From NCBI GenBank assembly GCA_965153355.1, contig OZ231126.1, positions 16,554,001 through 16,618,000 of the forward strand: a stretch of DNA of 64,000 bases, in the 5' to 3' direction. The notes under the pieces are model-generated. The model saw only the letters and a list, made by a program, of their open reading frames with translations, was not told the origin of the DNA and did no database searches. Of this stretch, positions 6,219 to 58,523 are shown in pieces (positions within the stretch are counted from its first letter, which is position 1; every line of letters begins with the position of its first letter). The DNA is from Flaccisagitta enflata (Eukaryota). A program made the position numbers and the translations under genes.

Positions 6219-7934
6219 TTATTTAAAACCTCACTTAAAAAGTTTTAAAAACAAGACTTTATAGAACCATTTATTTATACCAAAAAGTTTGGAAGCACCT
6301 TCTATTGAGGATAATTAAGCATCAGAAAAGCTACTTCTAAATATATCTTAATTTGATTTCGAATCTTCAGCATGAGTGCAATTTCGTTCATGTTGCTTTA
6401 ATCATTTGATAGAGGCAAACATATGAGTGAAAACAGTCATTCTTAAAGATAGTGAAAAATTAAAAAAACAAAGTTATAGGCTGCTTCTTCTGAGGATATC
6501 TCAGTTTAAAAAAACAAAAAAACAAACAAATTAAGTCTGTATTTTAATACCTTCCAATTGAGCGAGTTTCTGTTGCTTTATTCATTTAACAATGGCAAGC
6601 AAAATAGTAAAAATTTATCATAGATTGTAAAATATCATCATACCTGGCTGAAAAATATGTTCAACAAATCATTTCTCTAAAGAATGGCCTGAAAATTTTG
6701 CAAAAATATTGATATTATAATTCATTATTTCTCTTAATATAATGATTTTGTAAACCTCCAATATGGCCTCTTGCTCTGCTCATCAGCATGCAACTAGAGA
6801 CGCCAAATATCCGGCCTTGTTATTGATAAATACAATTATTCCCAAAGTGCTTCCAAACTTACTTCCTTGATAGTAGATTTCTCATAAAACGAACAAACGA
6901 GTTTGACTGGTTTCTTTTCTAGATCAAGTTCATACATCATACATCACCGAGTGAACAATGTTAATTTTTCAAGAATAGTCGTGTCCTAATGTAAAGGATC
7001 ATTATGGAATGGTTAACCATTGCTGAAATTAACCTTTTAGATAGTTTAGTTGCTAATATTTGATCTGTAATGAATTCAATTTTTGGGCTCCATTTAGTTT
7101 TTGTTATTTTGAATTAGATGTAACAGCATTTCTTCAACATTCCAGCTGACTATCTGTGGGTGCATGTTATAATCGAGTCTCTAAAACTTTGATTGTACTA
7201 TAATGAATAGTCACTAGTCAGAGCTGATTTACAAATGGTGAAATAAAAATGAAAAGGTGTTGAGTCTCGTGCCCGTGACAAAAGCTTTTTGGACCATTAA
7301 TCATTGTCGGAATATCCGTTGCTACTAGTGTAACATGCCAAAAGAGACGGCCTGTCAGCAACCAAGTCTAACAAGATTTAAAGTTATGCTGACTTCTTTC
7401 CATCAGCATATTTTGATCAAAACGTCCATGGTTTCTAACATTCTTCCAATAAATCATTAGTCGCGTGCTACGCGCCTCTACACCCCGCTTTGTCTGTCCG
7501 TTTGTCCGAATGTCCGTCCGCTGGTCTCTCGGTCGGTCAGTCGGTTTGTCACATTTCATTTTTTTTATTTGTTTTTTTTTCCTTAACCTCACTACATTTG
7601 CCCTAATGCTGTGGCGACCTCAAATATGACCCCTGCCCACCCGCACGCGACCATAGTAGCCGTGACTCCGGCCTTGTTTACTTTAAAATCGTTATCTTCC
7701 TTCGGTCTGTCGGAGTCCCTTACTCCTCCCCCCCAATAGGTACATCCACGAACCCACGATTGTATTTCTCTTAGAGTCGGAATTAGACTGTAAGGAAAGA
7801 TAATTCTCAGCGCTCTTTTCACTCGTTCGACTCTCCCACGCGTTTCCAAAGAATGCAAGAACCCATTTTTTATTCATTCCTGTTTTTCAAAATCAAATTT
7901 CAGGTTTTCGTTGGGAAAGAGGGAATTCCTTCGG

Positions 7935-16086: not shown

Positions 16087-17245
16087 CGCGAAAGCGTTAG
16101 ATGGTCAGCGGTGCCCGTTGCCCCTATGTGAGTATTAGTGGATGTGTGATGGTGAGGGGGGCAGCGGCCCCGGGCCAATGACCTATGCTTATCGGGTGAT
16201 CAGCCGGAATGGAGTAAATGTATGATGCTATTACTCTTAAAATACAAAAGAAAATTAGTTGGGGATGGTCTAGAATTGAAGAGAATTGCTGAACGTTTGC
16301 TTATCTAAAAAGAAATAGCCCTAAAATGTTAAAGAAACAGCCTTCTAAGTTATATTTCGGTTTAAGTCAATTTGCAAAAGTGGTGCAGTTTTGCGCGAAA
16401 TCCTTGTCTGATGTCAAGTCATTTCACTTAGAGTAGAGACATATTAGGTATAAAGTTGCGGTTTTCTTCAAAACTGAATTAAAAACTTGTCAATTAGGCA
16501 CAGAAAAACAGATTTAAGCTCCACCCAATCAACAGATATACTCAAAACACCATCGACATTGCGTAAATGGAAAAAAGTCACTTGTCCAAGTTTCTCCAAT
16601 TTTGGCATTAATACCCGATCATGGAAAAAAGCATCTACAGCCATTATTTGCAAGCCTTTTGGGCTGCAATATCTATCTTTAGCTTAAAGTAAACGTTCAT
16701 TAATTTTCTTTATGATAAACTATTGCCCACATTTCAATTATCAGTGGTTCAGTCTCAGCGTCTAAAAAGATTTACTCAGTTCCGGCTGATCACCCGGTAG
16801 TAAATTTAGATGCTCTAGCCTTGAATTATGGAATTAGAGCCCGAGGCTGGGATTTGAGCCCCGAGGCTGTGACTTGAGCCTTGAGGCTGTGATTTGAGCC
16901 TTGAAGCTGTGATTTGAGCCTCGAGGCTGTGACTTTAATCTTGAGGTGGTGATTTTAACCTTGAGGCTGTGATTTGAGTGTTGAGGCTGTGATTTGAGCC
17001 TCAAGGCTGTGATTTGAGCCTTGAGGCTGAGATGTGACCCACTAGGCTAGGATGTAAGCCTTGAGGCTGGGATTTGAGCCTCGAGGCTGAGATTTTAGCC
17101 TTGAGCTTGAGATTTGAGCCTCAAGGCTAGGATTTGGGACTTAAGGCTAGAATTTGGGCCTTGAGACTAGGATTTGGGCCTCAAGACTGGGATTTGAGTC
17201 CCAAGGCTTGGATATGAGTCTCAAGGCTAGGATATGAGCTTCAAA
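16087..17245 (-). mobile_element. Minisatellite-carrying element (20-bp GAGGCTGGGATTTGAGCCTT array), reverse orientation and interrupted
   Basis: Terminal module CGCGAAAGCGTTAGATGGTCAGCGGTGCCCGTTGCCCC at 16087, and a 20-bp array at about 16840-17245. Related modules at 15197-15850. Confidence 0.6.
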
Positions 17246-18173
17246 GGGATCCCATATTGACCATTTATGTACTTTAAAAACTCCCTTCATTTATGAAAAT
17301 TAAGAAATTTAATGGATCTCATTTGATATATCCCTCAGAACAACCACAAAATGGGGAATACAGTTTTATCAAATGCGCAACTAACTAACAAACCAACCGA
17401 GAGACAGACGCGACCTTAAATAGATATGAACAAATGAAAACTTTAAAAAGTCACATTAAAAACATTTGAGTGTCCTTTTTTAGTCGCGTGCACGCGACTC
17501 TACACCTTGCTCTGTCGGTCGGTCCGTCCCTCGTCCGTCCCTCATGTTTATTTTAAAATTTTGATTATTTTTAACGTTTTTAACGATTTTTAACATTTTT
17601 AACATTTTAACATTTTAACATTTACCTTTTAACATTTTCAAGTTTTTAACATTTTTAGAATTTTTAACATTTTTCAACTTTTTCAACTTTTTTTAACATT
17701 TTTTAACATATTTCAACATTCTTTAACAGTTTTTAACATATCTTAATATTCTTAACATTTAAACATGTTTTTGCTCTTTTGTTTTTCATTTCCAGACGCA
17801 TGCGACTGTTGCCCTCTTGGGCTTGTTTTTCTTTTCTTCTTGTCGTGGCTTTCCCTAGCGCATAATGAAATGGCGCTGGCAATGTTCCGGATGCGTTTTT
17901 AGTCGCAGACACGCGACTCTACACCTTGCCGTGTCGGTCGTTAGGTCACATTTTTGAATTTCGAGCGGTTTCGGCATTACAGCTTCAGCCCAACCGTCCG
18001 CGACTGGATTGCTGTGTTTCCGGCCTTGTTTTAGTTCATTTGAACCCGATTTGGTTTTCTGATATGATATTTTGATGTTCCATGACTTGGTCCGTCAATC
18101 CGTCCATCATTCTTGGCTTTTGACTTTTATTTGTTTTTCTTATTAGTAATGATATTATTAGTAATAATATTAC

Positions 18174-23171: not shown

Positions 23172-23981
23172 TGTGTGTTTGGTCCAAAATAATTATTTCT
23201 TTTAAGAAGAGCATTTTTTTATATTCTGACCCCTGCGCTTTTTATATGAGACCTTCAACCCCATTAGTATGCACTCTGTGTGTACATGGGCGTGTTAAAT
23301 CAAAATGAATAACCGCTGGAGTTTGGGGGAAATCGAATGCGGTTTGGTGACTCAAACGTGGCACGCGCGTGCAAATTTGTTTCGCTGTGTGTGTGCATGC
23401 GTGCGTGCGTTGACACACACGGGTGAGGGGGTTCCTGATTACGAATGTGCGCAAGGGCCTAGGAGTTTGTGTTTTTATGATAGAAATGGGGTTATGGTTG
23501 AAGCAGACAGAAACTTGACACCACGTTGACAGGAGTCTTACACAAACAAGGCCGGATACACGGCAATCCAGTCGCGGACGGTTGGGCAGGAGCAGTAACG
23601 CAATTTTATTGTTTTGGCCATTTCTTTCCTCCTTTACCTTTTCCTTCTTCCTTTACCTTTCCTTTTGTCTTTCACTTATTGCTTCTTTCGCCTTTTACTT
23701 CTTCCATTTCTTCTCTTACTTTTTCTTCCATTTCTTCTTTTATTTTTTCTTCAATTTCTTCCTATTTCTTCTTCCATTTCTTTTTTCCATTTCTTCTTTT
23801 CCTTCTTCTTCCTCCATTTCTTCTTTTCTTTGTTGGCCTTGTTCTTTTCTCTATCTTCTCCCTATTTTTCTTTCTTCTTCTTCTTCTTCTTCTTCTTCTT
23901 CTTCTTCTTCTTCTTCTTCTTCTTCTTCTTCTCTGAATTTGGCCATCGCCAAGTATCTATCTCTGTTTATGTGTGTCAGTA

Positions 23982-24018
<37 letters not shown>

Positions 24019-24019
<1 letters not shown>

Positions 24020-24138
24020 TTGATCGTCCCTGATCAACTTGCGAATAAGAATGGGTTTCGTTCCCCCAACCATCAGCCCTCTTTTACGGCACAATTCTTT
24101 CAGTTGCCGAACGTTGAACACCTCGTAGTATTCTTCGT
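24019..24138 (-). CDS. SAP-domain exon (DEEYYEVFNVRQLKELCRKRGLMVGGTKPILIRKLIRDDQ)
   Basis: Matches the SAP consensus (V.QLK..C..RGL...G.K..LI..L). Acceptor acccag| and donor |GTAATG. 120 nt, phase 1-1. Confidence 0.8.
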
Positions 24139-24229
24139 CTGGGTGATCGAAATTTTTTTTTTTGGGGGGGGGGGGGTTATAACGTGAGCTGTCAGTATAA
24201 CTTTGCGGCACATCTGGGTCATCCTACCT

Positions 24230-28861: not shown

Positions 28862-29614
28862 CTGTTCATGTTTAAATTGTTCATGTTTTAATTGAAAGTT
28901 TAGTGGTGGACGCGAAAAAAAAAGTTGAGTAGCTTTTAGTGGTAAGCGATAAAATGTAGGTTCATGTCACTTACGTGGAATCTTTATGATGAGATTCTCC
29001 AAGGAAGTCTTTTTGACTCGTACGCGTCAACAAACGTACTAACATTACAGATTCTTGTTCGTAACAAAAAAAAATGTAATTCTGAAGACCAAATTTTTAG
29101 CGTCGCTAGAGAATATAGTTGACGGATTGCACTACGCAATTGTTCTAGCTGGAAATTTGACTAAAAATTTCAGTTATCATCAATATACCGCACATACTAG
29201 AAAATAACTTGAATAATTTAAAAACAATCTCAGCCTGGATTTTTTCTAAATTGGTCCTAAAAACTGACTAATCTCTGTCTCCCAAGAGCGTCTTTTAAAA
29301 GAAAAGTGTGAGGGGTACGAGGGACGGATGGACCGATAAAGTACGGTAAAGAGTCGCGTAGCACGCGATTTAAAAGTGTTTTCTCTGATGCTCACGATTT
29401 TGAAGATTTGTAATTATGTTGACGTTTCTACAGCCCAATTATCGTAAGTATTCCATCACTTCTCCATGATAGTAGAATATATTTGAAAAGAAGGTGATTA
29501 GATACAAGGGGGCGATACATGTATCTCAACATGTTTTCCATCCACTTTCTGCGACGGCTGAACGGGTTGGTGATTAATAGAAAATAGTGAAACCCTTAAT
29601 GCGCAACAACTTAC

Positions 29615-31716: not shown

Positions 31717-32605
31717 ATATGTTCCTTACATGTATTTGTCTTATCTATCGAATAAATCAACTCATTGCATTGGAGATAGTTTTGGCCGGTGGTTTCCATG
31801 GCATCCTGAGCCTTAACTTTTTTGGTAAACATGGCTCTTCCATGAGTTTTTAAGAAAGCTATACATAGAAAAGTCTGCTAAAAAAAATTAAAAAAAAGAG
31901 CGCAAAAAGAGCTCACCGAGGAAACTGTCAACAATTATTTTCTGTCTTTTCTTCTGCTTGAAAATTGAAAAAATGCTTGACCTAAAAAATTGTGGAAGTG
32001 AAGGGTATTACCCCAATCCTAAGCTCTTGCAGTGAAACAAGTTTTTGCTGATGCTCTCAAGAAGGTGATAAACTTTTGAGCTAGATAGTATTTCCCGTTT
32101 TTATGAATTAGTTTTTTAGGTATTCTTAAAGCTCTGTGATAATTTGTATTTGTTTCTCAGAGTCCGGCATTTCAACATCGCAGTCTGGACTGTTAAAAAT
32201 TTCGCTTTTTGGTCGTTATTTGATCAAAATATTTAAAAATGTCTTTTCTCTCCTTTTCTCAACGGAATAATCCCTTCCCTTTGTAAAGGGTAAAAAGAAA
32301 TAACGTAAAAACACATCAACTGTGTTCGATGAACTGTATCATTTTTAGTCGCGGACACGCGACTCTACAACTTGCCGTGTCGGTCGGTAGGTCCGTCCGT
32401 CCGTCGGTCTGTCCGTCTGTCCGTCACATTTTTGATTTCCGAGTTGCTTGCGTTACTGCTCCTGCCCATCCGTCCGCGACTGGATTGCCGTGTATCCGGC
32501 CTTGTTTTACTTGATTTTAGAAATTGTCACGAACGATAAAGAACAAGAAATATACCGGCGTTTGTCATCAAGTCAATCCGTAATAACTCGTTTTCTTCCT
32601 TGCAG

Positions 32606-34326: not shown

Positions 34327-37300
34327 CCAAATACCCCCTTTATCACCACCTCGGGCACCCCTACAACGACCCAACCCCCAAAATCACCATCACATAGCGA
34401 GATTTGGATATACCAGAGGAAAGTTTAACCTAAAAAATACAAAATCACCCCAAACACCCCCTTTATCACCACCTCGGGCACCCCTACAACGACCCAACCC
34501 CCAAAATCACCATCACATAGCGAGATTTGGATATACCAGAGGAAAGTTTAACCTAAAAAATACAAAATCACCCCAAATACCCCCTTTATCACCACCTCGA
34601 GCACCCCTACAACGACCCAACCCCCAAAATCACACTATCACATAGCGAGATTTGATATACCAGAGGAAAGTTTAACCTAAAATACAAATCACCAAATACC
34701 CCCTTTATCACCACCTCGGGCACCCCTACAACGACCCAACCCCCAAAATCACCATCACATAGCTAGATTTGGATATACCAGAGGAAAGTTTAACCTAAAA
34801 AATACAAAATCACCCCAAATACCCCCTTTATCACCACCTCGGGCACCCCTACAACGACCCAACCCCCAAAATCACCATCACATAGCGAGATTTGGATATA
34901 CCAGAGGAAAGTTTAACCTAAAAAATACAAAATCACCCCAAATACCCCTTTATCACCACTCGAGCACCCCTACAATGACCAACCCACAAACACCATCACA
35001 TAGCGAGATTTGGATATACCAGAGGAAAGTTTAACCTAAAAATACAAAATCACCCAAATACCCCCTTTATCACCACCTCTGGCACCCCTACAACGACCCA
35101 ACCCCAAAAATCACTTTATCATATAGCGAGATTTGGGATATAACAGAGGAAAGTTTAACCTAAAAATACACAAAATCACCCCAAATACCCCCTTTATCAC
35201 CACCTCGAGCACCCCTACAACCACCCAACCCCCAAATCACCATCACATAGCTAGATTTGATATACCAGAGAAAGCAACCTAAAAAATACAAAATCACCCC
35301 AAATACTCCCTTTATCACCACCGGCACCCTACAACGACCCAACCCCAAAATCACTATCAAGATATGAGATTTGGATATACCAGAGGAAAGTTTAACCTAA
35401 AGGTTGTGTGTAATCATTCCCAAATACCCCCTTTATCACCACTCGAGCACCCCTACAACGACCCAACCCCAAAAATCACCATCACATAGCGAGATTTGGA
35501 TATACCAGAGGAAAGTTTAACCTAAAAATACAAAATCACCCCAAATACCCCCTTTATCACCACCTCGGGCACCCCTACAACCACCCAACCCCCAAAATCA
35601 CCATCACATAGCGAGATTTGGATATACCAGAGGAAAGTTTAACCTAAAAATACAAAATCACCCCAAATACCACCCTTTATCACCACCTCGCACCCCTACA
35701 ACGACCCAACCCCAAAAATCACCATCAAGACAGCGAGATTTGGATATACCAGAGGAAAGTTTAACCTAAAAATACAAAAATCACCCCAAATACCCCTTTA
35801 TCACCACTTCGGCACCCTTATAACGACCCAACCCCCAAAATCACCATCACATAGCGAGATTTGATATACCAGAGGAAAGTTTAACCTAAAAATACAAAAT
35901 CACCCCAATACCCTTTATCACCACCTCGGCACCCTTACAACGACCCAACCCCCAAAATCACCATCACATAGCGAGATTTGGATATACCAGAGGAAAGTTT
36001 AACCTAAAAATACAAAATCACCCCAAATACCCCCTTTATCACCACCTCGAGCACCCCTACAACGACCCAACCCCCAAAATCACCATCACATAGCGAGATT
36101 TGGATATACCAGAGGAAAGTTTAACCTAAAAATACAAAATCACCCCAAATACCCCCTTTATCACCACCTCGGGCACCCCTACAACGACCCAACCCCCAAA
36201 ATCACCATCACATAGCGAGATTTGGATATACCAGAGGAAAGTTTAACCTAAAAATACAAAATCACCCCAAATACCCCCTTTATCACCACCTCCAGCACCC
36301 CTACAACGACCCAACCCCCAAAATCACCATCACATAGCGAGATTTGGATATACCAGAGGAAAGTTTAACCTAAAAATACAAAATCACCCCAAATACCCCC
36401 TTTATCACCACCTCGGGCACCCCTACAACGACCCAACCCCCAAAATCACCATCACATAGCGAGATTTGGATATACCAGAGGAAAGTTTAACCTAAAAAAT
36501 ACAAAATCACCCCAAATACCCCCTTTATCACCACTCGAGCACCCCTACAACGACCCAACCCCCAAAATCACCATCACATAGCGAGATTTGGATATACCAG
36601 AGGAAAGTTTAACCTAAAAATACAAAATCACCCCAAATACCCCCTTTATCACCACCTCGGGCACCCCTACAACGACCCAACCCCCAAAATCACCATCACA
36701 TAGCGAGATTTGGATATACCAGAGGAAAGTTTAACCTAAAAAATACAAAATCACCCCAAATACCCCCTTTATCACCACCTCGGGCACCCCTACAACGACC
36801 CAACCCCCAAAATCACCATCACATAGCGAGATTTGGATATACCAGAGGAAAGTTTAACCTAAAAATACAAAATCACCCCAAATACCCCTTTATCACCACC
36901 TCGGGCACCCCTACACCCACCTCCAACCCCTGTAATCATCAAGAGCAGTTGGGATTGATATACCTAGAGAAAGTTTAACCTAAAAATACAAAATCACCCC
37001 AAATACCCCTTTATCAACAATTCTGGCACCCCTACAACGAACCAACCCCTGAAATCACCATCACATAGCGAGATTTGGATGACACTGAGGAAAGTTTAAC
37101 CTAAAATAAATCACCCCAATAATTCTCTTCTTTATCACCACCTCCTATACCCTATAATTGACCAACCCCCAAAATCACCATCACATAGCGAGATTTGGAT
37201 ATACTAGAGGAAAGTTTTACCTAAAAATACAAAATCACCCCAAATACCCCCTTTATCACCACCTCGGGCACCCCTACAACGACCCAACCCCCAAAATCAC

Positions 37301-37737
37301 CATCACATAGCGAGATTTGGATATACCAGAGGAAAGTTTTAACCTAAAAATACAAAATCACCTAAATACCCCTTTATCACATTCCTGGGCACCCTTACAA
37401 CTACCCAACCCCAAAATCACCATCACATAGCAAGATTCGATATACCAGAGAAAGTTTAACCTAAAAATACAAAATCACCCCAAATACTCCCTTATCACCA
37501 CCTCGAGCACCCTACAACCACCCAACCCCCAAAATCACCATCACATAGCCGGAGATTTGGATATACCAGAGGAAAGTTTAACCTAAAAATACAAAATCAC
37601 CCCAAATACCCCCTTTATCACCACCTCGGGCACCCCTACAACGACCCAACCCCCAAAATCACCATCACATAGCGAGATTTGGATATACCAGAGGAAAGTT
37701 TAACCTAAAAATACAAAATCACCCCAAATACCCCCTT
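34327..37737 (+). repeat. ~122-bp satellite array, left part (about 28 units)
   Basis: Unit CCCCCTTTATCACCACCTCGGGCACCCCTACAACGACCCAACCCCCAAAATCACCATCACATAGCGAGATTTGGATATACCAGAGGAAAGTTTAACCTAAAAATACAAAATCACCCCAAATA. Many units carry homopolymer indels. Confidence 0.95.
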
Positions 37738-39207
37738 CACCGTGGTAGTTGATCAAGCAAAAATGATTTCGAGATTTCTTTTTTGTTGGGTAGGTATGTG
37801 TGTAACTTAGCCCCAGACATGATCTCAGACATGGCGGACGCATAGGAGAGGCGGTGTGCTGCCAAAAAGCCAAAATTGACATTGTGCGTTACGGCCCAAA
37901 GGAGGCCTCTGCGTACCAAGTTAGCATGCCCAAATGTTAAGAATACCTTTATATCATCATTGTATGTGTTGTCATGGTCGACCATGGGCACACGGCGTGA
38001 CAGTGTCAACTTTTCTTTTTTTGTCTTTTAGCGATTTTGTCGCGGTTCGTCGCAATGACTCAACAAGACAGATAACATTTTTTTGTTGCTTCGAGGCATT
38101 AGTTTGTTTCCACGTGTGGCGATCGGTGGCGGTTTTGAAAAACGCGCGTATTTTTCTTTTTAAATTTGGGTTTGCTCTTAATTCGGTGTTAGTGAAATCA
38201 TACAAAGGCGGTAAGGCCTCCATCCTATAACTCAATTGAACAAAAATATAGATTTCAGCATTGGTCTCACTATTGGAAGTACAGACTGACTTGAACAAGC
38301 AAGGATATGCTTTGACCGTTCAGCTGTGAATCTCATAATGTATGCATTCTTAGCTTTATAACTCATTCTTTTTTCATCTGTCCTCGAGTTGGAAAAAAAC
38401 AACGAAGACAGATCAATAGACTGATGAGCGAACCGATGCAGGGGGCCTCGAAAAAGGGAAGAGAAAAAAAAAATGATAGAAAAAAAAACCAAAGAAACGG
38501 GTGGGTAGTTATAAAAAGAAACATAGAAACAAAAAACAACGCCGTATTCACTCCCCCAGTCACGGACGGGTGGGTAAGGGCAGTATAGAAAAAACCGCTT
38601 GCATTTCAAAAAAAGTTACCGCCCAATGGACCAACCAACTAACCAACGGACCAACATGATAAGGATCCACGGTTAAAAAAATGAAAAAATAAAGGAACAA
38701 GGCCGGATTCACGGGCCAAGACAGTGCGCCGGGCGTTACTAATTCTTAGACCTATCCCTAGCTCCATCAGACCTATCCCTAGCTCCATCAGACCTATCCC
38801 TAGCTCTATCAGACGAAGGAAAGAAAGAGAGAAGGAAAGAAAGAGAGAAGGAAAGATAGAGAGATGGAAAGGAAGAGAGACGGGAAGGAAGAGAGACGGG
38901 AAGGAAGAAAGAAAGAATGAAACGGGGAAAGCGAGAGAGGAAGAGCAGGAGCAGCAAGGCCAAAAATCCCATAAACACAAACGCCCAAAAGGAAAACCGA
39001 CAGACGGACAGACTGACGGGCTGATGGATGGACCGATAGAGCGGGGTGTAAAGTCGCGTAGCACCCGACTAAAAACGAAAAAGTATCGGTTGTTGTTGTT
39101 GTTAACCGGAGAAGTAACGGTCGAAGAAAATAAGAGAAATGATAAGAAAATCAGGAAGAAGCCAAAATGAAAGTAAAGATGAAGGTTTTTGGACCAATAC
39201 GCGCAGC

Positions 39208-39278
<71 letters not shown>

Positions 39279-41193
39279 CGCAAATGACCATTTCTAGCGC
39301 GATTTTGGCGAGCACCTTATCCGCCATGTGATCATTAAAACAGTTAGCATATTGTACTTGAGAATGAATCTAAAAACTTTTATAATTGAGAAAACATAAC
39401 CTATAAGTCGGGTTTCAGATACTTTTTTTTGATATTTGAAAGAAAAAAAATGATGTAAAAAATTCCAAGCTGATTTTGATTTCAGGATGTTAGGAAACAT
39501 TTTGCCTTCAATAATAGCATCATGAAAGTTTTTCTTTGAACCGATAATGCTGAATTTGAACCTTGGAGGTGGGTGGGATGCAGGACTACATCCCGCTGGT
39601 GAGATGAATCAACGGGCTTAGGTGGTTGAGGTGGCCTGGGTGAAATATGCTTCGTCGTTGCTCGATAACTACCACTGTGTAGCTGATTTGGGTGGTTTTA
39701 GGTGGTTGAGGTGGCCTGGGTGAAATATGCTTCGTCGTTGCTCGATAACTACCACTGTGTAGCTGATTTGGGTGGTTTTAGGTGGTTGAGGTGGCCTGGG
39801 TGAAATATGCTTCGTCGTTGCTCGATAACTACCACTGTGTAGCTGATTTGGGTGGTTTTAGGTGGTTGAGGTGGCCTGGGTGAAATATGCTTCGTCGTTG
39901 CTCGATAACTACCACTGTGTAGCTGATTTGGGTGGTTTTAGGTGGTTGAGGTGGCCTGGGTGAAATATGCTTCGTCGTTGCTCGATAACTACCACTGTGT
40001 AGCTGATTTGGGTGGTTTTAGGTGGTTGAGGTCCACTGGGCGCTTCCGCCTCGTCGTTGCTCGATAACTACCACTGTGTAGCTGATTTGGGTGGTTTTAG
40101 GTGGTTGAGGTGGCCTGGGTGAAATATGCTTCGTCGTTGCTCGATAACTACCACTGTGTAGCTGATTTGGGTGGTTTTAGGTGGTTGAGGTGGCCTGGGT
40201 GAAATATGCTTCGTCGTTGCTCGATAACTACCACTGTGTAGCTGATTTGGGTGGTTTTAGGTGGTTGAGGTGGCCTGGGTGAAATATGCTTCGTCGTTGC
40301 TCGATAACTACCACTGTGTAGCTGATTTGGGTGGTTTTAGGTGGTTGAGGTGGCCTGGGTGAAATATGCTTCGTCGTTGCTCGATAACTACCACTGTGTA
40401 GCTGATTTGGGTGGTTTTAGGTGGTTGAGGTGGCCTGGGTGAAATATGCTTCGTCGTTGCTCGATAACTACCACTGTGTAGCTGATTTGGGTGGTTTTAG
40501 GTGGTTGAGGTGGCCTGGGTGAAATATGCTTCGTTGTTGCTCGATAACTACCACTGTGTAGCTGATTTGGGTGGTTTTAGGTGGTTGAGGTGGCCTGGGT
40601 GAAATATGCTTCGTCGTTGCTCGATAACTACCACTGTGTAGCTGATTTGGGTGGTTTTAGGCTGAGGTGGCCTGGGTGAAATATGCTTTGTCGTTGCTCG
40701 ATAACTACCACTGTGTAGCTGATTTGGGTGGTTTTAGGTGGTTGAGGTGGCCTGGGTGAAATATGCTTGTTGTTCTCGATAACTACCACTGTGTAGCTGA
40801 TTTGGGTGGTTTTAGGTGGGTGAGGTGGCCTGGGAGAAACATGCTTCGTCGTTGCTCGATAACTACCACTGTGTAGCTGATTTGGGTGGTTTTAGGTGGT
40901 TGAGGTGGCCTGGGTGAAATATGCTTCGTCGTTGCTCGATAACTACCACTGTGTAGCTGATTTGGGTGGTTTTAGGTGGTTGAGGTGGCCTGGGTGAAAT
41001 ATGCTTCGTCGTTGCTCGATAACTACCACTGTGTAGCTGATTTGGGTGGTTTTAGGTGGTTGAGGTGGCCTGGGTGAAATATGCTTCGTCGTTGCTCGAT
41101 AACTACCACTGTGTAGCTGATTTGGGTGGTTTTAGGTGGTTGAGGTGGCCTGGGTGAAATATGCTTCGTCGTTGCTCGATAACTACCACTGTG
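37738..41193. mobile_element. Non-autonomous Transib-type (RAG-related superfamily) element with RSS-like termini
   Basis: Left end CACCGTGGTAGTTGATCAAGCAA; right end (reverse complement) CACAGTGGTAGTTATCGAGCAA. 5-bp TSD CCCTT at 37733-37737 and 41194-41198, and the satellite resumes in register. No transposase ORF inside. Confidence 0.8.
39618..41193 (+). repeat. 80-bp tandem array (about 20 units), each containing the element's right terminus CACTGTG
   Basis: Unit GTGGTTGAGGTGGCCTGGGTGAAATATGCTTCGTCGTTGCTCGATAACTACCACTGTGTAGCTGATTTGGGTGGTTTTAG. Confidence 0.95.
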
Positions 41194-42571
41194 CCCTTTA
41201 TCACCACCTCGAGCACCCCTACAACGACCCAACCCCCAAAATCACCATCACATAGCGAGATTTGGATATACCAGAGGAAAGTTTAACCTAAAAATACAAA
41301 ATCACCCCAAATACCCCCTTTATCACCACCTCGGGCACCCCTACAACGACCCAACCCCCAAAATCACCATCACATAGCGAGATTTGGATATACCAGAGGA
41401 AAGTTTAACCTAAAAAATACAAAATCACCCCAAATACCCCCTTTATCACCACCTCGGGCACCCCTACAACGACCCAACCCCCAAAATCACCATCACATAG
41501 CGAGATTTGGATATACCAGAGGAAAGTTTAACCTAAAAATACAAAATCACCCCAAATACCCCTTTATCACCACCTGGCACCCTTTACAACGACCCAACCC
41601 CAAAACACCACATAGCGAGATTTGATATACCAGGAGGAAAAGTTTAACCTAAAAATACAAAATCACCCTAAATACCCCTTTATCACCACCTCGAGCACCC
41701 CTACAACGACCCAACCCCAAAATCACCATCACATAGCGAGATTTGGATATACCAGAGGAAAGTTTAACCTAAAAATACAAAATCACCCCAAATACCCCCT
41801 TTATCACCACCTCGGGCACCCCTACAACGACCCAACCCCCAAAATCACCATCACATAGCGAGATTTGGATATACCAGAGGAAAGTTTAACCTAAAAATAC
41901 AAAATCACCCCAAATACCCCCTTTATCACCACCTCGAGCACCCCTACAACGACCCAACCCCCAAACTCACCATCACATAGCGAGATTTGGATATACCAGA
42001 GGAAAGTTTAACCTAAAAATACAAAATCACCCCAAATACCCCCTTTATCACCACGGGCACCCCTACAACGACCCAACCCCAAAATCACCATCACATAGCG
42101 AGATTTGATATACCAGAGGAAAGTTTAACCTAAAAATACAAAATCACCCCAAATACCCCCTTTATCACCACCTCGAGCACCCCTACAACGACCCAACCCC
42201 CAAAATCACCATCACATAGCGAGATTTGGATATACCAGAGGAAAGTTTAACCTAAAAATACAAAATCACCCCAAATACCCAGACTCGTTATCACCACCTC
42301 GGGCACCCCTACAACGACCCAACCCCCAAAATCACCATCACATAGCGAGATTTGGATATACCAGAGGAAAGTTTAACCTAAAAATACAAAATCACCCCAA
42401 ATACCCCCTTTATCACCACCTCGAGCACCCCTACAACGACCCAACCCCCAAAATCACCATCACATAGCGAGATTTGGATATACCAGAGGAAAGTTTAACC
42501 TAAAAATACAAAATCACCCCAAATACCCCCTTTATCACCACCTCGGGCACCCCTACAACGACCCAACCCCC
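41194..42571 (+). repeat. ~122-bp satellite array, right part (about 11 units)
   Basis: Same unit and orientation as 34327-37737. Confidence 0.95.
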
Positions 42572-45500
42572 TAAGTCAAAGTTTCCTAGCTTTTGAGGCA
42601 AGGCTTTTCCCCTGATAACCGGTCAACATCCCTCCCACCTCCACCGTTCATATTTCGATTCATTCAAATGTTTGAATATCATATAGCGTATAGGTTTACA
42701 TTTTTAGGAAATCTTAAAAGCTCCTTCAATCGCAACCCTATTGTATATAGTAGCAGATATGCAAAACTTAAAAGTTTTTTTTCAGTTTTTCACTGAAATT
42801 GTTGATTTCTCTCTCTCAGAGGTGGGTTCTTAATTTCATTTTATATCTGTGACAATATGCAAAAAGCTTTCATAAACCTCCAACAATTATGAGTTTTTTT
42901 AAACGCGACTCTATGACCCACTGTCTTTCTGTCTGTCTATCCGTCCGTCGGTTGGTCTGTCTGTTTGTCGGTTTGTCACACCTTTTTTTTTTTTTGCTGT
43001 TTTACATCGTTTAAAGTCATTTTAAGTCATTTTACATTCTGTCTTTTAGTCTTGATGACCGCACGCGACTTAGAGGCGTTGGCCTTGTTTTTAGATGCGT
43101 CCGTCAGGAACGCATCTCTATAAGAGGGTCTGTCCGTCCGTCCGTCGGTCCGTCCGTCGGTCCGTCCGTCCGTCCGTATGTCCGTCCGTTACGCAAGTGC
43201 AAAAACCGCGTTTCTCGCCTGTTTTTGGCCATAATGAGATCCTATAATGAATCAAATGATCGACTAACGCGTTTTGAGAGCCTCCTTCACTACCCTTGTC
43301 GTTTCATCTGTCTGTTTGTCCATCTGTCTCTCCATATATGTCACATGTTCAATACACGCAGAGACACAGCCTGGACGCATCTTTGCCCGGTCGGGCTTGT
43401 TCTTTAATGGCATGAAACCCTACTTGATGAATTTCAGTGATAATTTGGAGACTGACAGAAACAGGTGACGCAATATTGTTGCGGACGGGTGGGCAGGGGC
43501 AACCGACCCCGATCAACTCCCCTTGCCCCCCAACCTCAACCACACACAAACACCATAAACGCTGTTTTTAGTTGCAGACTAGCGACTCTATAAGAGGCTT
43601 TATCCGTTCATCGGTTGGTCGGTTGGTCGGTCCGTTGAGGTCATCGAGCTGCGAAAATGAGCATTTCCGCTTCGCCCACCCATCTGCGGCTGGTATTGGC
43701 CGTGTATCAGGTATTGTTCCACTTTTTAGTCACAGACATGCGACTCTACACCTTGCCGTGTAGGCCGGTCCGTCTGTCGGTCCGCCCGTCCATCACATTT
43801 CTGAATTCTGAGCAGTTTTTGCGGTACTGCTCCTGCCCAACCTTCCTCAACTGGATTGCCGTGTATCCGGCCTTGTTGACTCATGCTAACGGCCGGACGG
43901 AGCAACGGACGGACGGAGCAACGGAGGATGGACCAACGGACGGACGGACAAAGCCCGCAACTAAAAACAACTGTGAGATGCTCCCAGACACAAGTTGACC
44001 AGCGTATAGTCGCATGCACGCAACTGAAGATGTCACATTAAGGTATGAACATATACACTTTGACATAGACGTAATGACAATTGCGTTATTCAAAAGAATC
44101 AGATTAACATGAGGCGGCCGTGAATTCCGTGACAAATTTTTATGAGCCACGTGGCCCGCTCTTGCGCTCTGCCGCGCCTCGCTCGCTCGTTCTATTTTTT
44201 TGACAGGATTGCTTAATCACTTCGCTCACTTGCTCGTGTAGACATAAACCTACGCTCGTCTTCGCCGGTCCAGCGGAATTTTCCGATTCAACTTTTTATG
44301 GCGGCCGGTCCGAAGACAGTTACCGCGTTGCCATTTTTTAAAAATATTGCTATCAAATTTTACATCATTACAAAGCCTAGCATTTAAGCTTTCCTCTGTT
44401 CGTTTTATCTTTATATTACTCCTATTCGTTTAGACGTAGTGATCAAAAGAAGAAACACTGTTCATGATTTCATGAGTCTGAGAACGAAACATGATTAAGA
44501 TTTTTTTTTCTTCTGAGTAGTGGAATCCATCGCGACTTTTTTTACCAAAACTTTGAAAGCTCATATCTCCTGAACGGATTGACCGATTGACTTGATTTTT
44601 TGTATGGTAACATCATATTACCTAGTCTACTGATGTGTGAAGTTTCAAGAAATTTCAGTATGTACAACCACCCGAACCAGCCTACCTACCCAAAAATTTC
44701 AAAAAAGCGTAGGTCTAAAAGTATTCACTAAAATTTTCTTAAATTTTGCATAAAGAACCATCAAACCCTTGGACAAATCCTGGGTAAGTTGTACGGCAAT
44801 CATGTAATTTCTTTGGCCGTAATCGCATAAAGCATTATTTTCACGTTGTCAAAAACATGAAATTCATCGAAGTTTTTAGATGCGTCCTCGCATCTCTATA
44901 AGAGGGTTTGTCCGTCCGTCCGTCGGTCGGTCCGTCGGTCGGTCGGTCGGTCCGTCCGTCCGTCCGTCGGTCGGACCGTTACGCCTGTGCAAAAACCGCG
45001 TTTCTCGGCTGTTTTTGGCCACGGTGAGATCCTACACTGAAACAAATGATCAACCAGCATGTTTTGAGAGCCTCCTCTATTACTCAATCATTTCACCCGT
45101 CTGTTCGTCCATCTGTCTCTCCGTATATGTCACATGATCAATACACGCAGAGACACAGTCCGGACGCATCTTTGCCCTTTCGGGCTTGTTTGATATGATT
45201 GCCTGTCATGACTACCTTGAATAATTGTCAGTGAGCGGTCTCATGTATGAATATTACATGTTTAAAAGTTCACACAGATATCTCTTACCGTTCAAAATAT
45301 ATAAACATTTTTAATAAGTGTGAAAATAGAAACCGCGCAGCGATCTTTCGGCCCCGCGCAGTTCGCAACTTAGTTTTCTGAACTTACGCGATCAACACGA
45401 GACAAACACTTTGGCTGAAACAAATTAACAACATGCGGCCATGTTTTACAAAAAAGCCGACCATTCTCTCGGACATTATTGAAGTCATGATTTAATAAAA

Positions 45501-47861: not shown

Positions 47862-48484
47862 TTTTGGGCAGCGGCCCCGAAGGGGCCGATGACCTATGCT
47901 TCCACACAGGAGAAATTTCTCCTCCTTCTCCTCCGTCCGTCCACCCCCTTATGAGGCCTTAATCCCAGCCTTGAGGCTCAAATCCCAGCCTCGAGGCTCA
48001 AATCCCAGCCTCAAGGCTCAAATCCCAGTCTTCAGGGCTCAAATCCCAGTCTTCAGGGCTCAAATCTCAGTCTCGTAGCTCAAATCCTAGCCAGGGGGCT
48101 TTAATCCCAGCCTGGATGCTCGAAACCCAGCCTGGATGCTCGAAACCCAGCTTGGATGCTCAGATCCCAGCCTGGAAGCTCAAATCCCAGCCTCAAGGCT
48201 CAAATCCCAGACTCAAGGCTCAAATCCCAGCCTAAAGGCTCAAATTCCAACCTTGAGGCTCAAATCCCATTCTTAAGGCTCAAATCCCATTCTTAAGGCT
48301 CAAATCCCAGCCTTAAGGCTCAAATTCAAGCCTTAAGGCTCAAATCCCAGCCTTGAAGCTCCAAACTTGCTAAGCATAGGTCATCGGCCCCTTCGGGGCC
48401 GCTGCCCCTCTTACCACCATACATTCACAAAAACTCACATGGGGGCAACGGGAACCGCTGACCATCTAACGCTTTTGCGACTAT
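47862..48484 (+). mobile_element. Minisatellite-carrying element (20-bp GGCTCAAATCCCAGCCTTGA array) nested in a HINE-like copy (47665-48592, minus)
   Basis: 5' TTTTGGGCAGCGGCCCCGAAGGGGCCGATGACCTATGCT, its inverted copy GCATAGGTCATCGGCCCCTTCGGGGCCGCTGCCC after the array, and a 3' module GCAACGGG(A/T)ACCGCTGACCATCTAACGCTTTTGCGACTA. Confidence 0.8.
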
Positions 48485-52008: not shown

Positions 52009-53352
52009 CTGTAGGTAGACGAAAGAGATAAAAATGAAACAGTAGATGTCGTCAAGACCTAGAGTTATGGAGGAATTCACGAGAAAAAAATAAATGAAAC
52101 AGAGATTTATAATATAATACTTTGAATCTCGACTTAAACAAAACAAAATAAAACAATGGTAGTGCACTATTCGACTATAAGTCTTGGGCCGCCTAGTGAG
52201 TAGGTAATCATATTCTGACATCGCATTTTTACTGGCGTCTTTGGAAAGTTGCGTCATGGTTACTTCCCTACTAAAAACTATTTCATCGAAATGTTATTAT
52301 CTCAGTGGGAACGCAAGAAAATGTGTTTCTAAATCAATTGATGTCCATCATCAATAGAGCATTTTCTTATTAATTTATATTTCAAATTAGTCTCTATATC
52401 CATCTTTAATATCTGTTTTTTTTTTAGTGTGAATACCCCTGTATTTCCAAGCAAAATGACATCTACTGTAGTATTCAGAAAGGCAAACAGAGTGACTAAC
52501 GGAAAGACAAAGGTGTGACAAACACAGTGTCGCGACTGACGGGTAGAAAAAACAAGCCCGGATACATGGCTACCTTAGTCGCGTGCGGGTGGGCAGGGGC
52601 AGTATTTGAGTTACTAAAGCACTTGGGCAAGTGCAGTGAGGCCAAAGACCGCAAAAACATAAAAAAAGTAAAATGGGGACCGACCGACCGACCAACCAAC
52701 CAACTGACCGACGAACAGATAAAGCGGGGTGTAGTGTCGCGTAGCACGCGACTAAAAAGTGATCACATGGATGGACACTGCCCATTGGACAGACAGAAAA
52801 GCACTTAGTTAGTATTATACTTTCATAGTAGGAGACTAAGAAAAAGGCAAAAGGCGTGTATAATAAAGATGAGGAAAAAGAAGATTTTTGAAAATTTGAA
52901 CTTCGAAAAAAGTTGGTGATCTTCGAAGTTGAAAGTAGCCACAAAGTGACAAACACAACTCTCGAAGATGTATACTGCAGAAGTGCCAAAACCAGCATAG
53001 ATAACGGATGAGCCAATAAAACAAAGATAATCCAATATTTCCCACTTTGCCACAGGAAGGCTTAGTAACAAGCAACATCGACGAGAACAATGAGGGATAT
53101 TATTTCAAGGCTAAAAATCAATATCAACATATTTTTCCAGTTGTTAATCTTTTAGCAATGGAAACCATCTTGAGTGCATTTATAGATAGTACACGGTCAC
53201 TAAGAACTCGCTTACGGGTGGGCTGGGGCAATAATGCTAGTGGGCAGGGGCAACGATGCTAGTAGGCAGGGGCAGTAATGAGAATGGGCACTGGGCAGGG
53301 ACATTATTATGGCGGCAGGGGCTGTAACGTGAAAATAGAATGTGGAACTAAC

Positions 53353-57887: not shown

Positions 57888-58523
57888 TTTTGGGCAGCGG
57901 CCCCGAAGGGGCCGATGACCTATGCTTTCACACATAGGGGAAATTTCTCCTCCTCCTCCTCCTTCTCCTCCTCCTTCTCCCCCCCCCCCCCGCTCAAGGC
58001 CCAAATCCTAGTCTCGAGACCCAAATCCTAGCTTCGAGGCTCAAATCCCCGCTTCAAAGCTCAAATCCCAGCCTTGAGGCTCAAATCCCAGCCTCGAGGC
58101 TCAAATCCCAGCCTTGAGGCTCAAATCCAAGCCTTGAGGCTCAAATCCAAGCCTTGAGGCTCAAATCCCAGTCTCAGGGCACAAATCCCAGCTTTGAAGC
58201 TCAAATCCTAGCCTCAAAGCTCAAATACCAGCTTCCAAGCTCAAATCCCAGCTTCCAAGCTCAAATCCCTGCCCCGAAGCTCAAATCCCAACCTCAAAGC
58301 TCAAATCCCAGCCTTGAAGCTCAAATATCTGCCTTGAAGCTGAAATCCCAGCCTCGGAGCTCAAATCCCAGCCTCAAGGCCCTAATCCAAGCCTCAAGGC
58401 CCAAATAAAAACTGCATAGGTCATCGGCCCCTTCAGGGCCGCTGCCCCTCTAACCACCTCACACCCACATACACTCACATAAGGGCAACGGGTACCGCTG
58501 ACCATCTAACGCTTTTGCGACTA
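57888..58523 (+). mobile_element. Minisatellite-carrying element (20-bp array), same family as 47862-48484
   Basis: Same terminal modules and (GCCTTGAGGCTCAAATCCCA)n. Confidence 0.8.

Follow-up and report, generated by a model that had tools for sequence, protein, structure and literature searches.

The segment that interrupts a 122-bp satellite at positions 37738-41193 of the window (the whole 64-kb stretch of DNA analysed) is probably a non-autonomous cut-and-paste transposon of a marine eukaryote. It would belong to the Transib superfamily, taken broadly so as to include RAG-like elements, and its right end would have seeded a satellite. The 80-bp monomer found at this end is a major genome-wide satellite, as known from contig depth and tandem joints, and the array seen in the window is a local piece of that satellite whose monomer holds a transposon terminus. 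The case is one of a known kind of transposon-to-satellite transition and not an antigen-receptor-like system. The insertion and its surroundings comprise the following features.

37738-41193, plus strand: non-autonomous element with terminal inverted repeats (TIRs), 3456 bp, recognised by its target site duplication (TSD), its TIRs and its lack of coding capacity
34327-37737, no strand assigned: host 122-bp satellite, left part (TRF: 28.1 copies, 90% matches)
41194-42578, no strand assigned: host 122-bp satellite, right part (TRF: 11.4 copies, 95% matches; also a 487-bp higher-order period)
37733-37737, no strand assigned: left TSD copy, CCCTT (empty-site rebuild)
41194-41198, no strand assigned: right TSD copy, CCCTT (empty-site rebuild)

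Both tracts of the 122-bp satellite directly adjoin the borders of the element as delimited by TRF, and intact satellite continuing past 37737 was present in 41, 21 and 3 contigs of sequencing runs X1, X2 and X3, respectively. The empty site was rebuilt by script, the insert being deleted and 0 to 8 bases being taken off at the right junction. Only with 5 bases removed did the rebuilt unit match an intact unit of the right satellite array at 122 of 122 positions (119/122 against the left array), any other removal within this range scoring lower against the satellite unit, so that the 5-bp TSD can be regarded as proved. A reading previously made from the sequence only, which described a satellite interrupted in register and a 5-bp CCCTT duplication, is thereby confirmed on both counts. 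Transib elements prefer GC-rich targets, and the target at this single insertion site has G or C at three of its five positions.

The two ends of the element were defined by alignment to each other.

37738-37760, plus strand: left TIR, CACCGTGGTAGTTGATCAAGCAA (end alignment; a contig match of run X3 stops exactly at 37738)
41172-41193, minus strand: right TIR used at the present insertion, CACAGTGGTAGTTATCGAGCAA (end alignment)

Given as its reverse complement, the right end is CACAGTGGTAGTT-ATCGAGCAA, and the left and right TIRs are identical in 20 of 23 aligned columns (two mismatches and one gap), past which the alignment detected no similarity between the ends. Both TIRs start with CAC, the heptamers being CACCGTG at the left and CACAGTG, the exact RSS heptamer, at the right, just as the sequence-only reading had it. 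The 13-mer CACWGTGGTAGTT occurs 21 times in the window when up to one mismatch is allowed, once on the plus strand at 37738 and 20 times on the minus strand from 39667 to 41193; the expectation from shuffled sequence is 0.11, and none of 100 shuffles reached 21. The left heptamer is followed by 12 nt and by GCAAAAATG, which agrees with ACAAAAACC at six of nine positions and has A at nonamer positions 5-6. These are the letters that had been taken for a heptamer/12-spacer/nonamer signal and they are indeed present, but a score of 6/9 is attained by 2.5% of the window's 9-mers and, with 12 eligible positions, about 26% of such tests would yield at least one match, so that the putative nonamer is not significant. 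The A-rich nonamer of Transib, with A at its positions 5 and 6, is expected 23 (or 12) bp away from the heptamer. At the right end no nonamer was found at spacers of 11-13 or 22-24 nt, in agreement with the earlier remark that none was convincing at 23 nt.

The right terminus is repeated in tandem towards the interior of the element.

39618-41193, plus strand: right-end array, a first unit of 62 bp followed by 19 units of about 80 bp (TRF, heptamer scan)

TRF rendered a period of 80 bp, 19.8 copies and 97% matches for this array, in which 20 heptamer ends, all in direct orientation, fall between 39679 and 41193; the terminus had been estimated to occur about 20 times at 80-bp spacing, which is what the count gave. 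Every unit terminates in TTGCTCGATAACTACCACTGTG, the inner units open with the 18-bp segment TAGCTGATTTGGGTGGTT, and 15 of the 20 are identical over the shared part, while three deviate in length (79, 77 and 78 bp). The full 22-bp TIR is kept in 19/20 units, and its terminal 16 bp, GATAACTACCACTGTG, in 20/20. The first unit is devoid of the 18-bp segment and is joined to unique interior, and the last one stops at the heptamer beside the TSD, an anatomy to be expected if a segment reaching across the terminus had been duplicated in tandem.

A weak interior match to the 18-bp segment at ca. 39468, sharing AGCTGATTT (score 20), would fit an internal origin of this segment and not a captured flank; 11 of 200 shuffles scored as well, and as a sign of degenerate units upstream of the array the match is unconvincing. 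A GGTGGTT microhomology considered as the source of the period was dropped because the two motifs lie 70 bp apart, not 80, and the idea that the unit is a complete mini-element inserted repeatedly into itself was rejected because the units do not start with CAC.

Abundance was assessed with the contigs (k=31) of runs X1 and X2 and of the metagenome X3, matched to the stretch ending 21 nt after the first heptamer; as X1 and X2 may be the source sample of the window itself, only X3 is independent. Other marine metagenome runs, with small shares, were not counted as evidence of habitat. The summed k-mer depth, which is not a copy number, reached 1.37-1.64 million over the 80-bp unit in X1, as compared with 1.47 million over the 122-bp satellite and ca. 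0.45-7.7 thousand over the unique interior bins, with similar proportions in X2 and X3. The 80-bp unit has ca. 200-3600 times the summed depth of the interior and about the same depth as the host satellite, and for this reason the array is regarded as a piece of a major satellite. Tandem joints, at which a contig goes back 80 bp, were found in 22 (X1), 24 (X2) and 3 (X3) contigs. The monomer contains the 22-bp TIR and is abundantly repeated in tandem, as depth and joints both indicate, which qualifies it as a transposon-derived satellite; no long array standing by itself was observed directly. The description of a heptamer terminus amplified within the element was correct with regard to the 20-unit array, but fell short of the extent of the phenomenon, the monomer being at satellite level in the reads.

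The interior of the element is also present in multiple copies. Contigs of the three runs cover 30/30 bins of the compared stretch; single interior sites are represented by as many as 16 variant contigs, and the window copy carries a minority letter at several sites (for instance G at 37836, where 10 X1 contigs have A). One X3 contig of 159 nt matches positions 37738-37866 and continues with 30 nt unlike the satellite flank, the match stopping at the left CAC; it is the only contig reaching the left terminus among the matches listed (24 of ca. 19,200). The evidence of insertion elsewhere is this one contig at one end, and no further complete copy, bearing both ends and flanked by a TSD, was seen. 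Within the 64-kb window, a BLAST of the element against the remaining sequence rendered four partial matches, all to the nested repeat described below, and no second copy of the ends or of the unique interior. An exact scan of metagenomes for the 16-mer GATAACTACCACTGTG gave 111 loci, which are attributed to chance matches of a short word because, in a BLAST of the whole element against all of them, nothing but an (AC)n match in L041 came up; the 22-mer TIR had no match in the genome contig collection and none in the viral contig collection.

The nested repeat lies in the middle part of the element.

38696-39075, plus strand: very abundant dispersed repeat inside the element (contig depth, loose ends)

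It is composed of 21-bp repeats, a GA-rich tract, a (GTCY)n-like tract and an A-rich tail, has a depth of 0.2-2 million against 0.45-7.7 thousand in its surroundings, and shows loose ends before 38696 and behind 39075 with diverse A-rich flanks; it is probably a nested retroposon-like insertion. No transposase appears to be encoded, as had been stated before: the longest stop-to-stop ORF in the window has 301 aa, and none of the 196 ORF translations of the window matched a transposase or RAG1 Pfam family, a search that may miss Transib transposases, one of which has no InterProScan match according to the available part of a 2026 preprint. RNA genes were found in the window neither with Rfam at gathering thresholds nor with ARAGORN. 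In the poly-A RNA run X24, one read of ca. 12.2 million (ca. 6% of the run) matched the stretch, which gives no sign of expression in what is a weak test.

These observations are consistent with the following order of events. The inverted ends of ca. 22 bp, beginning with CACMGTGGTAGTT, would be recognised by a transposase supplied from another place in the genome, which would cleave at the CAC borders and integrate the element by a 5-bp staggered cut, producing the CCCTT duplication in the 122-bp satellite. The right end would then seed the satellite: an 80-bp segment, comprising the terminal 62 bp of the element and 18 bp more, would be tandemly duplicated, after which unequal exchange or replication slippage would expand and homogenise the repeats, with the outermost copy of the right end serving as the working terminus at the present insertion. 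The end would thus have come first and the satellite second, and the expansion of the array may have preceded or followed the insertion.

It could also be the case, although we consider it unlikely, that the array is functional as a whole, a possibility raised by the sequence-only reading. A transposase would pair the one left end with whichever of the 20 right ends and thereby generate length variants and orphan end-arrays at donor sites; such events would help to spread the 80-bp satellite. The conservation of the 16 terminal bp in all units and of the 22-bp TIR in all but one, with every copy oriented as required to face the left end, speaks for such a function, and so does a ratio of monomer to interior depth that far exceeds the 20:1 of the window copy and implies that most monomers lie outside elements like this one; ordinary satellite expansion, however, explains the excess of monomers equally well. 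Two long loose-end consensuses before 39618 show AGCTGATTTGGGTGGTT after non-array letters and might mark array starts just after the heptamer, each of them probably representing very few contigs. On the other hand, neither a junction between an internal heptamer and foreign flank nor an excision footprint nor a length series was seen in the k=31 contigs, which cannot resolve such junctions; no active transposase is known, and the single matching read among ca. 12 million RNA reads does not favour one. The ends being intact, a transposase might in principle select any one of the 20. The further proposal that an abundant satellite is propagated by a RAG/Transib-type transposase, with end choice moving variable numbers of monomers and leaving orphan cleavable arrays behind, seems distinctly unlikely.

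The opposite order of events, in which an 80-bp satellite already held or had acquired a right-end-like sequence and a nearby left end mobilised the chimera up to one of the monomers, is quite unlikely as well. It would account for a monomer that is a major satellite and far commoner than the interior, it has a precedent in the capture of pre-existing tandem repeats by a MITE proposed for miDNA4 in the available part of PMC12628747, and the two ends have only 22-23 bp in common. Nevertheless, with 20 of 23 columns identical and one mismatch among the 13 terminal bases, the two ends agree too well for a cryptic site arisen by chance, of which 0.11 are expected per window; moreover, the first unit, devoid of the 18-bp segment and continuous with unique interior sequence, is consistent with outgrowth of one terminal copy, and the interior is itself multi-copy along its length.

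With regard to classification, Transib/RAG-like is the superfamily that best fits the combination of a 5-bp TSD with TIRs that start with CAC and carry a CACAATG/CACAGTG-like heptamer; Kapitonov & Jurka characterised Transib as the superfamily having 5-bp TSDs and gave CACAATG as the heptamer consensus, the RSS having CACAGTG (PMC1131882, available part). Since no transposase was seen, the assignment to Transib is based on the length of the TSD and on 7-13 bases at the termini. The sequence-only reading of a Transib-like element is therefore retained as to the 5-bp TSD, the CAC ends, the non-autonomous nature and the best fit, with the superfamily itself put forward on these hallmarks as a probable assignment. 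It is very improbable that the element belongs to another superfamily with 5-bp duplications, such as hAT5, and that its likeness to RSS and Transib heptamers is convergent. A group of hAT elements defined by 5-bp TSDs does exist (title of a reference cited in PMC12730594), TDD-4/5 also make 5-bp TSDs (PMC2836005), and classification from termini only is unreliable, the TSD length and termini of Transib being variable (2026 preprint), as far as the available parts of these sources go. However, hAT termini invariably have G, not C, at their third position in the accessible text of PMC1131882, whereas both ends have C here; the TGTNR termini of Ginger/TDD (PMC2836005, in part) and of Ginger2/TDD and LTR-type (TG...CA) elements do not correspond to CAC...GTG, and neither LTR-type TG...CA ends nor direct LTRs were found at the element. 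CACTA/Mirage/Chapaev (CMC) elements have TSDs of 2-4 bp in what is available of the 2026 preprint, not of 5 bp as found here, and Helitron, LTR and foldback readings were ruled out by the termini and the TSD.

That a satellite contig was wrongly joined to unrelated repeats during assembly, so that the whole structure is a chimeric artefact, is barely conceivable: repeats, which are difficult to assemble, make up the flanks and much of the insert, and no contig or read bridging either junction was among the matches listed (24 of ca. 19,200), but a misjoin would not yield a perfect 5-bp duplication that restores a 122/122 unit together with inverted repeats exactly at the borders, and contigs of the independent metagenome X3 match most of the interior at 90-99%.

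Taken as a Transib-like element, the insert can be compared with known systems within the accessible portions of the sources cited. It has in common with non-autonomous Transib elements (Transib-N, Hopper/Kodama) and RAG-like elements the 5-bp TSD, the CAC TIRs, the RSS-like heptamer, the lack of a transposase gene and the kilobase size, and with Hztransib TIRs that are heptamer-like without a clear nonamer (PMC1131882, PMC4840297, PMC7204232, 2026 preprint). It differs from Transib in its heptamers, CACCGTG and CACAGTG against the consensus CACAATG, in having no significant nonamer, in a common TIR of only ca. 22 bp against 37-38 bp, and in a right end repeated 20 times; past CAC, its termini also depart from the protostome RAGL consensus CACTWMCAAACKTYKBB. 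In the available parts of the literature on Transib and satellite DNA, neither a repeated right end nor a link between the two was found.

Transposon-borne and TIR-derived satellites are already known, as in Tetris TIR-220, Xstir and miDNA4. Tetris/TIR-220 of Drosophila virilis (PMC4079207, available part) resembles the present element in being non-autonomous, in having tandem repeats in its termini and in forming long satellite arrays elsewhere. Its tandem repeats, however, lie within long TIRs on both sides, with the outermost part of the TIR as a separate module, whereas here one side is expanded, the monomer includes the terminus and cleavage site, and the superfamily is a different one. 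Tandem repeats on or from TIR elements are likewise found in Xmix/Xstir and miDNA4 of Xenopus and in pearl/BIV160 of bivalves, and MITE-associated tandem repeats, whose copy number varies, can expand beyond the element and become classical satellite DNA (PMC9659126, PMC12628747, as available). These are Tc1/mariner-type or unclassified MITEs with monomers from the TIR or from internal parts; complete, correctly oriented Transib-like termini as monomers were not found in the portion of the literature covered.

The likeness to V(D)J RSS consists of the CAC heptamers, one of them an exact CACAGTG, and of many signals in the same orientation facing one opposite signal. Unlike in V(D)J loci, there is here no significant nonamer, no 12/23 pair, no coding segment beside the signals and no evidence of a recombinase, and the signals lie 80 bp apart inside a satellite. 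The likening to antigen-receptor loci in the sequence-only reading finds no support here. The resemblance indicates at most common descent of the type of end, and the two systems are not comparable.

The element adds a Transib-like case to the satellite-generating transposons, one in which the monomer holds a complete cleavage terminus instead of an internal or subterminal piece. Should there be an active cognate transposase, such arrays of equivalent ends would offer a natural test bed for RAG1-like end choice; if the reading based on end choice were true, satellite dispersal and the seeding of arrays would be driven by that choice, and the locus would represent a natural one-to-many substrate for a RAG1-like enzyme. 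At present, the main use of the finding lies in repeat annotation, in which the two satellites, of 80 and 122 bp, and the element family should be treated as related layers.

The window is repeat-rich, non-coding eukaryotic DNA of ca. 40% G+C, in which an insert of 3456 bp (hereafter the element) interrupts a tandem satellite, as a reading of the sequence alone had proposed.

Features of the insertion site, the element and its nested repeat
34327-37737, 122-bp satellite, left part (tandem-repeat finding)
37733-37737 and 41194-41198, CCCTT on both flanks of the insert
37738-41193, insert between the satellite parts, 3456 bp
38696-39075, nested repeat inside the element, with three 21-bp repeats (AGACCTATCCCTAGCTCCATC), a GA-rich tract, a (GTCY)n-like tract and an A-rich 3' side
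39618-39679, first unit of the right-end array, with an array-homologous part of 62 bp, adjoining unique interior sequence
41194-42578, 122-bp satellite, right part (tandem-repeat finding)
52627-52758, 32333-32471, 29323-29375, 7457-7533 and 17477-17539, partial copies of the 38696-39075 repeat

The empty site was rebuilt by a script that took 0 to 8 bases off the right junction and compared the product with intact satellite units. Only when exactly 5 bases were removed did the product agree with an intact right-array unit at every position (122/122); it then matched the left array at 119 of 122 positions. The CCCTT pair is a genuine 5-bp target-site duplication (TSD), as had been claimed, and an assembly misjoin is ruled out as its source because only the 5-base removal restores a perfect unit. 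The satellite continues unbroken past 37737 in 41, 21 and 3 contigs of two DNA sequencing runs (X1 and X2) and a marine metagenome run (X3), respectively. The left part of this satellite is more diverged (90%) than the right, which at 41194-42570 has an additional period of 487 bp (97% identity vs 95% at period 122), that is, a higher-order repeat of about 4 units.

The left end of the element and the reverse-complemented right end are identical in 20 of 23 columns, with two mismatches and one gap, and the likeness stops there; the heptamers are CACCGTG (left) and CACAGTG (right), so that the inverted-repeat ends described from the sequence are confirmed. Integration took place at inverted CAC ends through a cut staggered by 5 bp. 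With at most one mismatch, the 13-mer CACWGTGGTAGTT has 21 matches in the window (0.11 expected): one is on the + strand, at 37738, and the other 20 are on the - strand, from 39667 to 41193. Inside the element, ACGGGTGGGTA is found twice in direct orientation (38497-38507 and 38563-38573), and its first copy extends into GGTAGTTAT, a 9-mer common to the right terminal inverted repeat (TIR), which could be due to chance (roughly 0.2 for one such 9-mer) or be a degenerate internal end.

The two structural hallmarks of Transib that the sequence allows to be tested, the 5-bp TSD and the CAC-heptamer TIRs, are present in the element. Duplications of 5 bp are also made by LTR-type integrases, with TG...CA ends. 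They are made as well by the hAT5 group and, with TGTNR ends, by TDD-4/5 (PMC2836005), the third base of hAT termini being always G (PMC1131882). These three origins are disfavoured by the CAC...GTG termini. Transib makes 5-bp TSDs, and its TIR consensus reads CACAATG, a 23-bp spacer and AAAAAAATC, with CAC invariant (Kapitonov & Jurka 2005, PMC1131882). RAG-like transposons of protostomes and deuterostomes share the 5-bp TSD and the initial CAC; past CAC, however, their consensus, CACTWMCAAACKTYKBB, does not fit the ends of the element (PMC7204232). The element is probably Transib/RAG-like, an assignment that rests on the termini and the TSD; that it is a non-autonomous cut-and-paste TIR element is nearly certain. 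The Transib-like part of the sequence-only reading is therefore reasonable, whereas the V(D)J signal that it saw at the left end, a heptamer, a 12-nt spacer and a nonamer, is present but not significant: of the window's 9-mers, 2.5% agree with ACAAAAACC at 6 or more of 9 positions, so that with two ends and six spacer lengths one or more matches of this quality would arise by chance in ~26% of cases. In Hztransib, too, the TIRs are heptamer-like and hardly nonamer-like (PMC4840297). The analogy drawn between antigen-receptor loci and one left end facing 20 right ends is unsupported.

No transposase was matched in a Pfam scan of 196 ORF translations of the window (29 + 102 + 65, including 24 ORFs of at least 35 aa from the element interior), in agreement with the earlier claim, Pfam being a weak detector of Transib transposases; a 2026 preprint reports one without any InterProScan domain match. 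The scan left aside 66 of 265 ORFs of at least 70 aa (low entropy) and ~16 ORFs within the 122-bp satellite. The longest stop-to-stop ORF of the window has 301 aa and is of low complexity. Only one match passed a curated cut-off, that of a SAP domain on the - strand at 23960-24223 (30.5 vs 23.9 bits), probably a host gene exon.

The right end of the element is an array (39618-41193) of the 20 copies at 80-bp spacing that had been reported. When units are cut after each CACTGTG, the first is followed by 19 of ~80 bp, each with an extra 18 bp (TAGCTGATTTGGGTGGTT) at its start and the 22-bp TIR at its end, and the last stops at the heptamer adjoining the TSD. The shared part is identical in 15/20 units, the full TIR is kept in 19/20 and its terminal 16 bp in all 20. 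In one variant monomer (40000-40078), ca. 20 bp are exchanged, with GGTCCACTGGGCGCTTCCGCC instead of GGTGGCCTGGGTGAAATATGCTT; it retains the TIR and the 18-bp segment, and the array is otherwise uniform. This 62 + 19x80 anatomy is the expected remnant of a tandem duplication across the right terminus, by which the monomer would have been born, after which the outermost terminus was either used for transposition or kept during expansion of the array in place. The 18-bp segment, which weakly matches the interior near 39468, would derive from DNA that once flanked the element or from inside it. Growth and homogenisation of the array could have occurred by unequal exchange or slippage. Since the units are nearly identical, whereas the interior diverges several percent from other family members, the sequences suggest that expansion or homogenisation was recent, and it may be later than the insertion.

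Runs sharing parts of the stretch include two DNA runs (shares 0.42), which may be the assembly's own source data, and several marine metagenomes (0.27-0.33 and lower). X1, X2, X3 and a poly-A RNA run (X24) were compared, at a likeness of at least 90%, with 37660-39700, chosen to avoid long repeats; this part extends 21 nt past the first array heptamer, and the contigs were built at k=31. The element interior exists in multiple copies: contigs of X1, X2 and X3 each cover all 30 bins, and alternative letters appear at many positions in up to 16 contigs, the window copy often having the minority letter. Among the 24 pieces listed, of about 19,200, the left terminus is reached by a single contig (159 nt; record 17 of X3); it matches 37738-37866 with 4 differences and continues into 30 letters unlike the satellite flank, which reveals a further insertion sharing this left border. 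In X24, one read in ~12 million matched 37660-39700, which gives no indication that the element is expressed.

Within the element, bins at 38695-38832 and 39040-39108 reach summed depths of 0.2-2 million, and loose ends gather at 38696 (before) and 39075 (behind), continuing into diverse A-rich sequence. The segment 38696-39075 is most likely a very abundant retroposon-like repeat unrelated to the element; its features resemble those of a SINE- or retroposon-like family in which microsatellites are embedded, and they recall the (GTCY)n 'mobile microsatellites' that PMC9659126 lists. Elsewhere in the window, a 20-bp unit (rotations of CTCGAGGCTCAAATCCCAGC) forms arrays of ~20 copies at 16829-17239, 47961-48361 and 57993-58406, one of the three in opposite orientation. 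These may be arrays inside members of another dispersed element family.

In this organism the 80-bp repeat is a major satellite. Its summed k-mer depth in X1, a measure that is not copy number, is 1.37-1.64 million, as compared with ~0.45-7.7 thousand in unique interior bins (45 in one bin) and 1.47 million for the 122-bp satellite; X2 (0.91-1.35 million) and X3 (22-45 thousand vs 10-60 in most interior bins) agree. Joints going back 80 bp were found in 22 (X1), 24 (X2) and 3 (X3) contigs, with many small junction variants among those listed. Because the ratio of unit to interior depth is hundreds to thousands, vs 20:1 in the window copy, most monomers are located elsewhere than in elements of this kind, and the array in the window is a 20-unit sample of the satellite.

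The element lacks coding capacity, its array monomer includes the terminus, and this monomer is abundant genome-wide. Mobilisation in trans would be carried out by a predicted RAG1-like DDE transposase acting through the nick-hairpin chemistry that is cited for Hztransib (PMC4840297); that such an enzyme picks among the tandem ends, thereby spreading the satellite, is improbable. Satellites born from or riding on DNA transposons are well documented, among them Tetris and TIR-220 of Drosophila virilis (PMC4079207) and those linked to Xmix/Xstir, miDNA4, pearl-type MITEs and others (PMC9659126; PMC12628747). No published link between Transib and a satellite was found: in three of the four library papers that mention both Transib and satDNA, Transib is confined to a reference or a census table, the review PMC9659126 having it only in the reference list. 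The element and its 80-bp satellite represent a transposon-derived satellite like Tetris/TIR-220, Xmix/Xstir and miDNA4, its distinctive feature being that the monomer holds a complete, correctly oriented transposon terminus.
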